This document shows, piece after piece, positions 12,661 to 12,897 of a DNA stretch of 24,319 bases. A model generated the notes under the pieces. The model had not been told where the DNA came from, made no database searches, and saw only the letters and a list, made by a program, of their open reading frames with translations. Both the position numbers and the translations under genes were made by a program. Positions within the stretch are counted from its first letter, which is position 1; every line of letters starts with the position of its first letter. This stretch comes from a virus (taxonomy: Duplodnaviria; Heunggongvirae; Uroviricota; Caudoviricetes), in the IMG/VR virus record IMGVR_UViG_2923302340_000011, positions 1-24,319 of that record. One strand, 5' to 3'.

Positions 12661-12731
12661 GTTAGTTCCTTGGAAGTTACTGACATAGAAGCCCGATTTG
12701 TGTTCGCGCACTGTCGGGCTTCGCTATTTTT
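12661..12731 (+). ncRNA. Candidate sar-like antisense RNA, about 70 nt, complementary to the ant ribosome-binding region
   Basis: Plus-strand promoter TTGATA (12626-12631), 17-nt spacer, TATACT (12649-12654). Intrinsic terminator: 9-bp stem GAAGCCCGA (12688-12696) / TCGGGCTTC (12714-12722) followed by a T-run (12727-12731). Same layout as the P22 sar RNA between arc and ant. Confidence 0.5.
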
Positions 12732-12897
12732 ATGTCCTAGCATTCTTCTCTCCAATCAGTCCGTACACTTTTCTCAATTGATAAATAAGTTCCGTGTTGA
12801 ACTGTCGACACTCTTTTTCTCCATTTCTTTCAATCGCCTTCCTTACATCCTCTGGGAAACGAACCTTGCGTTGATACATGTCTTTTGCTTTTTCCAT
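12730..12897 (-). CDS. arc: Arc-like ribbon-helix-helix repressor (55 aa); not in the supplied ORF track
   Basis: Hand translation gives MEKAKDMYQRKVRFPEDVRKAIERNGEKECRQFNTELIYQLRKVYGLIGEKNART. AAGGAG lies 5 nt upstream of the ATG at 12897. Resembles the P22 Arc fold region (…FNLRWPREVLDLVRKVAEENGRSVNSEIYQRV…). Confidence 0.65.
   Translation of the reverse strand: MEKAKDMYQRKVRFPEDVRKAIERNGEKECRQFNTELIYQLRKVYGLIGEKNART

Follow-up and report, generated by a model that had tools for sequence, protein, structure and literature searches.

A probable Arc-equivalent repressor gene in a P22 immI-type antirepressor cassette between the tail genes L and K of a lambda-like prophage

The repressor Arc of phage P22 (PDB entries 1ARR and 1PAR) is a protein of 53 amino acids (aa) encoded in the immI region, where arc heads the arc-ant operon and mnt, the gene for another repressor, lies in divergent orientation; the operators of Arc and Mnt are unrelated in P22. 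An 'Arc-like repressor' has also been annotated in Escherichia phage TL-2011b (gp41, YP_007001992.1), beside a gene labelled 'anti-repressor Ant'. P22-type mnt-arc-ant loci and counts of Ant in Shiga toxin (Stx) phages are described in the literature, in which we did not find the allele studied here or its slot between the tail genes L and K. This allele is located in a 24,319-nucleotide stretch of viral DNA (Caudoviricetes; IMG/VR record IMGVR_UViG_2923302340_000011, positions 1 to 24,319), whose whole length we refer to as the window and whose numbering is used throughout. We focused on a short open reading frame (ORF) on the minus strand at 12730-12897, and conclude, with a probability of roughly 85%, that it encodes the Arc-equivalent repressor of an antirepressor cassette of the P22 immI type, carried by a lambda-like prophage between its tail genes L and K.

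The ORF and its translation signal are as follows.
12730-12897, minus strand: arc-like gene, 55 aa plus stop, predicted ribbon-helix-helix (RHH) repressor
12903-12908, minus strand: Shine-Dalgarno sequence AAGGAG, 5 nt (TGGAG) before the ATG at 12897-12895

The frame runs from ATG to TAA and its product is MEKAKDMYQRKVRFPEDVRKAIERNGEKECRQFNTELIYQLRKVYGLIGEKNART. The initial annotation had reported an unlisted 55-aa ORF on this strand, together with an AAGGAG 5 nt upstream of its ATG; we reproduced the quoted translation exactly and found the AAGGAG at 12908-12903, with TGGAG as the spacer. As for the ORF being unlisted, this was true of the ORF track available at that time, but not of RefSeq, where the Prokaryotic Genome Annotation Pipeline (PGAP) calls the identical ORF as WP_001579610.1, 'hypothetical protein', in NZ_CP062871.1, a complete E. 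coli genome that contains the exact locus at 99.8% identity. This allele is rare at the L-K slot, being present there in one of 5,426 complete E. coli genomes. An automatic ORF listing starts the gene two codons earlier, with a GTG at 12903 that lies within the Shine-Dalgarno sequence. Since all homologous loci begin at the position of the ATG (14/14, three of them with GTG there) and the sequence upstream of it diverges or is unrelated between loci, we place the start at 12897. A purine-rich element of the GGAG type is found at the equivalent position in the related loci.

The 14 related loci used for comparison span about 10 enterobacterial genera and come from Rouxiella, Raoultella, Pluralibacter, Citrobacter, Kluyvera, Proteus, Dryocola, Pantoea, Yersinia pestis and a second E. 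coli lineage. Across them the proportion of synonymous differences in the arc-like ORF (pS) is 0.66-0.96, which is saturated, and that of nonsynonymous differences (pN) is 0.04-0.17, while the variable columns of the alignment number 23, 15 and 48 of 51 at codon positions 1, 2 and 3, respectively. The ORF at 12730-12897 is a real, conserved gene under strong purifying selection.

Judged by sequence comparison, its product is homologous to Arc and belongs to the Arc/RHH family. The Pfam Arc profile (PF03869) matches the 55-aa protein with an E-value of 0.0011 and 19.2 bits, just short of its gathering threshold, residues 5-41 falling on profile positions 2-38, and precomputed PF03869 matches are present on homologs that are 93% and 84% identical to it. 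PHROG 228, 'Arc-like repressor', also matches (E 1.3e-5). When compared directly with P22 Arc, for which the reference sequence used was checked and found to be a 100% match to GenBank X01916, BLASTP gave 33% identity over 40 aa (residues 1-40), and hhalign aligned the family profile with Arc over residues 4-43 with no gaps (E 1.7e-4). Close homologs form a tight and widespread family of 129 clusters in Enterobacterales, many of which, at 91-96% identity, are already named 'Arc family DNA-binding protein'; gp41 of TL-2011b, 79% identical, belongs to the same family. An exhaustive HMMER search of 1.84 billion representatives returned 42 proteins at E <= 1e-3, and an extended alignment of 46 proteins was built from the tight family and the significant distant HMMER matches. 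This alignment displays the classic RHH pattern xxRxPxxLxxxIxxxAxxxxRSxNxEIxxxL, and 38 of its 46 members match Pfam Arc (E <= 0.01). Searched against the PDB, the extended profile reached single-chain Arc at 1.3e-12, AmrZ at 2.2e-10, Arc 1ARQ at 3e-8 (query residues 3-47 on chain residues 1-45), a 2026 'Arc family DNA-binding protein' chain at 4.5e-8 and Mnt at 6.6e-8.

The residues that are invariant in the family (K3, A4, M7, Q9, R13, P15, D17, A21, R31, F33, N34, T35, E36, Q40-K43 and Y45-L47) include the strand residues Q9 and R13 and the motif R31/N34/E36, all of which align with the same residues in Arc; P15 is likewise conserved between the two proteins. The outward strand residues are thus Q9, K11 and R13 here versus Q9, N11 and R13 in Arc, and the residues of the strand core are V12 and F14 here versus L12 and W14 in Arc. 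Further differences from P22 Arc are R10 in place of F10, and Q40 in place of R40, which takes part in a salt bridge in Arc.

Fold prediction is in agreement with this homology. An AlphaFold2 (AF2) model built on the 46-sequence alignment (mean local confidence, pLDDT, 87; global confidence, pTM, 0.65) superseded an earlier one based on a shallow 34-sequence alignment, which had a pLDDT of 66 and gave no Foldseek hits. In the newer monomer model residues 7-15 are extended and are followed by helix A (16-28) and helix B (33-44), which is the topology of Arc, so that the two proteins share a predicted beta-alpha-alpha fold. The beta-strand is predicted at about residues 8-14; DSSP did not label it E in this model because only the monomer was modelled. 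When the model was compared with the PDB using Foldseek the leading hits were all RHH proteins, with the Arc-operator complex 1PAR first (probability 1.00, TM-score 0.66-0.69), followed by AmrZ, Arc mutants, CdbA, RHH antitoxins and CopG. A predicted RHH fold for the 55-aa protein is therefore supported by the modelling. The suggestion in the initial annotation that the residue pattern fits an RHH fold like that of P22 Arc has accordingly held up, both in the PHROG and profile matches and in the structure prediction that had been proposed as a check, which returned a strand and two helices at good confidence with 1PAR as the top match.

The neighbourhood of the gene is that of P22 immI, and the two genes next to it are the following.
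11737-12657, minus strand: ant (antirepressor), 306 aa, with P22_AR_N and P22_AR_C domains, 56% identical to P22 Ant
13021-13395, plus strand: mnt-like gene, 124 aa, with an N-terminal RHH domain, divergent from the arc-like gene

As in P22, the arc-like gene is the first gene of an arc-ant operon and an mnt-type gene diverges from it, and the order (mnt-like leftwards, then arc-like and ant rightwards) equals that in the annotated P22 immI record, bearing out the earlier remark that the ORF sits directly upstream of ant as in that phage. The arc-like stop at 12730 and the ant ATG at 12657 are separated by a gap of 72 nt on the same strand. Ant has clear domain matches (P22_AR_N, E 5e-45; P22_AR_C, E 5e-28), and its identity with P22 Ant, which extends over the full length, rises to about 90% across the last 110 residues. 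The first 43 residues of the Mnt-like protein form an RHH domain of the Arc family (Pfam Arc, E 3e-7) that shares 33% identity with P22 Mnt. Each of the 14 related loci has a divergent Mnt-like gene, and an Ant-type gene lies downstream of the arc-like gene in most of them. In the Mnt-like proteins of loci L002-L014, only the N-terminal RHH domain of about 43 aa (MSREDPQLRIRLP...) is conserved between genera; the C-terminal part, which presumably serves oligomerisation, is exchanged between loci, and the proteins range in size from about 87 to 150 aa. TL-2011b and the NCBI entries named 'Arc family DNA-binding protein' have the same neighbours, with Ant downstream and a Mnt-like gene upstream, together with the same operator block, although in TL-2011b the cassette is found in another genomic context and not between L and K.

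The regulatory region between the arc-like and mnt-like genes comprises 123 bp (12898-13020). The whole 24.3-kb window contains just three copies of CNCACNGTGNG, at 12916, 12941 and 12966, all within this intergenic region and spaced exactly 25 bp apart; 0.5 copies would be expected, and three were reached in none of 100 shuffles. These copies mark three operator-like sites, which stand among two predicted promoters.
12965-12977: O1, operator-like perfect palindrome CCCCACCGTGGGG, which abuts the arc/ant -35 and fills the spacer of the predicted mnt promoter
12940-12952: O2, operator-like near-palindrome, ACGCACGGTGTGA on the minus strand, in the spacer of the predicted arc/ant promoter
12915-12927: O3, operator-like palindrome, CCCCACAGTGAGG on the minus strand, downstream of the predicted arc/ant -10
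12936-12964, minus strand: predicted sigma-70 promoter of arc-ant (Pant-like), TTGACT at 12964-12959, 17 nt, GACAAT at 12941-12936, with TG before the -10
12955-12983, plus strand: predicted divergent promoter of the mnt-like gene (Pmnt-like), TTGAAG at 12955-12960, 17 nt, CATAAT at 12978-12983

Both promoters are consensus matches only, and their -35 elements overlap. The hexamers of the arc-ant promoter are conserved in 15 loci, and so is, nearly without change, a block of about 70 bp that extends from the mnt -10 to O3 and contains the three sites and both predicted promoters, whereas the leaders that flank it cannot be aligned between loci. Since the block is near-invariant across about ten genera while the flanking leaders diverge, there is strong evidence that it is functional. 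The spacing between O1 and O2 is fixed between loci, and that between O2 and O3 varies by a few bp.

We take the identities of the P22 operators Oarc and Omnt to be those of Sauer 1983 and Vershon 1987. In the P22 region Oarc lies in the spacer of Pant, and the palindrome GGTCCACGGTGGACC (Omnt) follows the -10. O2 thus occupies the position of P22 Oarc, and O3 that of Omnt, with the same central nine bases CCACGGTGG; this core, common to O1 and O3, is the centre of P22 Omnt. Oarc itself, ATGATAGAAGCACTCTACTAT, is unrelated to the sites found here, which have a CAC-N-GTG core. By analogy with P22, O2 is the most likely site of the Arc-like protein. The position of O3 after the -10, like that of Omnt, and the RHH fold in the same type of cassette are also points of likeness to P22 Mnt; the 55-aa protein, however, lacks a C-terminal tetramerisation domain and is transcribed with ant, and the role of Mnt fits the 124-aa neighbour rather than the 55-aa protein.

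The gap between the arc-like gene and ant contains one further candidate element.
12661-12733, plus strand: Sar-like antisense RNA candidate, hairpins and a U-run opposite the ant ribosome-binding site

Hairpin 1 (12661-12684) is complementary to that site, and hairpin 2 (12688-12722) is GC-rich and followed by the U-run UUUUU at 12727-12731. A promoter for this RNA is predicted on the plus strand at 12626-12654 (TTGATA-17-TATACT), within ant codons 2-10, and is the best promoter match of the region (10/12, with TG); its -10 hexamer is retained even where the downstream gene is no homolog of ant. The predicted RNA has a fold energy of -30.1 kcal/mol (z -4.3). The Rfam sar model (RF00262) aligns over its full length at 12661-12725 on the plus strand with 15.6 bits, under the gathering score of 43, and a scan of the wider interval 12400-13500 returned no sar; in P22 the same model matches exactly the arc-ant gap, with 97.8 bits. 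In 15/15 informative loci the predicted fold of the antisense strand is more stable than that of the sense strand, by 2-16 kcal/mol, a difference characteristic of G-U pairs in the antisense RNA; the L016 interval had been mis-picked and was left out of this comparison. When the arc-ant gaps were aligned with MAFFT, RNAalifold found no consensus structure, the hairpins being thrown out of register by indels, so both strands were folded for each sequence separately instead. We consider that the gap may encode a diverged Sar-like antisense RNA. In the Proteus loci L008 and L010 (3166-3220) the arc-like C-terminus is slightly longer, no more than about 40 nt separate the gene from the next one downstream and there is no terminator-like hairpin; in these two loci the Sar-like element thus seems reduced or missing.

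As regards dimerisation and DNA binding by the Arc-like protein, the assignment of sites to proteins and the activity of the promoters, we infer the following sequence of events. The 55-aa protein would fold as an intertwined RHH homodimer, the paired N-terminal strands of which (about residues 8-14, where Q9, K11 and R13 face outward) would enter the major groove and bind at least one of the three CAC-N-GTG-core palindromes in the 123-bp interval. After infection or derepression the arc/ant promoter would fire and the Arc-like protein would accumulate, binding as dimers or as a tetramer within the promoter, most likely at O2. Such binding would turn off transcription of both arc and ant, and, with arc at the head of the arc-ant transcript, the protein would thereby shut its own promoter, a delayed negative feedback limiting the synthesis of Ant; it would probably also damp the overlapping mnt promoter. 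In the lysogen the Mnt-like protein would keep the promoter off through O3 and/or O1, and a Sar-like antisense RNA, blocking the ant ribosome-binding site, would limit translation of ant. Ant, once made, would inactivate prophage repressors of the CI type.

Several observations weigh against the identification of this protein as the Arc equivalent, and three other explanations have to be considered alongside them. The Pfam Arc score is slightly under the curated gathering threshold of 20.4, and Foldseek, faced with a tiny domain of 45 residues, gave only weak E-values (0.07 and above). Moreover, when the PDB was searched with the single protein (phmmer) or the tight family (hmmsearch), chance hits ranked above Arc, the top ones being de novo designed proteins and a primase large subunit, and the tight-family profile on its own reached Arc at only E 0.05-0.13; we dismissed the designed-protein and primase hits as compositional, and the extended profile with its distant members resolved the question. 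It could be argued from the shortness of the ORF, and from PGAP having named it only 'hypothetical protein', that it is a non-functional chance frame in the 5' leader of the ant mRNA. This is extremely improbable, since variation between loci is heavily weighted towards codon position 3, with pN far below pS, the start position and the ribosome-binding site are conserved, the homology to Arc is significant and the fold prediction is confident; the substitution pattern led us to reject a non-coding status for 12730-12897. Just as improbable is an RHH antitoxin of a type II toxin-antitoxin pair in place of a regulator of phage immunity. FitA, CopG/RHH_1, ParD-like proteins, VapB and AtaR do appear among the weaker sequence and fold matches, but these rank below Arc, AmrZ and Mnt, the ORF is flanked by ant and the divergent mnt-like gene and has no toxin gene or domain beside it, and the protein, which ends about 10 residues past helix B, does not have the C-terminal toxin-binding extension typical of RHH antitoxins. 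The antitoxin explanation was rejected on the gene context.

The remaining adverse points concern the operator-like sites, the contact residues and the promoters. The three operator-like sites, as opposed to two in P22 immI, share one core; the strands of the Arc-like (Q-x-K-x-R) and Mnt-like (Q-x-R-x-R) proteins have similar contact residues; and the predicted promoters stand back to back, whereas those of P22 overlap fully. Because of the shared core and the similar contact residues, the assignment of O2 to the Arc-like protein comes solely from positional analogy with P22. Covariation between the operators and the beta-strand residues gave no help with the assignment of sites, since there is hardly any variation in either. 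The third explanation is an RHH DNA-binding protein with a role unlike that of P22 Arc: it might use the same CAC-N-GTG sites as the Mnt-like protein (O1, O3 and O2), competing or cooperating with it in a three-operator switch, or it might mainly regulate the mnt promoter or readthrough into the tail genes K-I-J. The exact 25-bp spacing of three sites with one core speaks for such a role, as do the strands YQRKVRF (Arc-like) and PQLRIRL (Mnt-like), which are near-identical in their outward residues, the identity of the O1/O3 core with that of P22 Omnt while O2 is unlike P22 Oarc, and half-sites that are interchangeable between loci (the left half of O2 is CCTCAC in Citrobacter L006, and the right half of O1 is GTGTG in L002/L015). 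Nevertheless, both the gene order and the location of O2 within the promoter spacer are those of P22, and we regard a departure from the role of Arc as unlikely; whichever role it has, the protein remains a repressor of the Arc family. Somewhat less improbable, although still doubtful, is the narrower proposal that the Arc-like and Mnt-like proteins may share the CAC-N-GTG core at the three operators, recognised by means of their near-identical beta-strand contact residues, and act there by competition or mixed occupancy, giving a switch logic unlike that of P22. If this were true, the exchange of arc, operators and mnt among phages that keep the same ant would represent interchangeable anti-immunity specificities at the L-K slot of lambdoid prophages.

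On the identification that we prefer, an Arc-equivalent repressor of ant, the cassette stands in a setting that differs from the one in P22, which is a podovirus, the phage here being a lambda-like siphovirus. The window is the late region of a lambda-like prophage beside pspG and dusA, with the tail genes on the minus strand, and the cassette is a 1.7-kb insert between L and K that consists of the mnt-like gene, the 123-bp regulatory region, the arc-like gene, the 72-nt gap and ant. The surrounding tail genes are these.
14436-16985, minus strand: H (tape measure), tail gene
14110-14439, minus strand: M, tail gene
13412-14110, minus strand: L, tail gene (Pfam Phage_tail_L, 5e-101)
10945-11721, minus strand: K, tail gene with JAB and NlpC/P60 domains

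Further tail genes on the same strand are I, J and the tail fibre genes. In P22 the mnt-arc-ant cassette is likewise embedded in the late operon, upstream of tail genes. Near the start of the window the host genes pspG (166-618, minus strand) and dusA (542-1579, minus strand) are followed by a tyrosine integrase gene (1668-2765, plus strand); the prophage seems to have integrated at dusA or beside it, its integrase end adjoining the tail-fibre end of the late region. A tail-fibre gene with a prophage tail fibre N-terminal domain lies at 4486-6864 (minus strand), and downstream of it a 234-aa Peptidase_S74 (endosialidase-chaperone) protein is encoded at 3491-4195 (minus strand). No Pfam match was obtained for the small ORFs at 3193-3480 and 4205-4486.

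The L-K slot is also occupied by a cassette in long-tailed Stx phages (Stx2a_WGPS8, 2851, YYZ-2008, 1717 and others). In Stx2a-converting phages the arrangement is the same, with the mnt-like gene, the arc-like gene and ant between L and K in the same orientations (1638-3233 of L016, which is Stx2a_WGPS8, compared with 11737-13395 of the window), and the DNA is about 90% identical over the matched 62% of a 1.9-kb query, namely ant and the K and L ends. These phages, however, carry another allele of the arc-like gene, the mnt-like gene and the operators, the Arc-like protein being MQDTLFTERKNIKLNLRLPSRL... and the repeats of the TGGCA/TGCCA type. Since ant and the K and L ends are alike while arc, mnt and the operators differ, the regulatory part of the cassette has apparently been swapped as a unit.

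Taken as a whole, the ORF is an uncharacterised addition to the known Arc-type repressors and an ordinary part of a P22-style cassette, and the only mildly unusual feature is the set of three operator sites with a shared core; no new principle is implied. The practical gain is one of annotation: WP_001579610.1, now 'hypothetical protein', should become 'Arc family repressor of ant', and the insert between L and K can be read as a complete mnt/arc/sar/ant anti-immunity cassette, its sar part being a candidate. The conserved block of three sites offers a compact system for asking how two paralogous RHH repressors whose contact residues are similar share or divide related sites. Cassettes of this kind govern whether a prophage derepresses itself or co-resident prophages, which bears on how lambdoid prophages are induced, among them the Stx phages, in which a sister allele fills the L-K slot.
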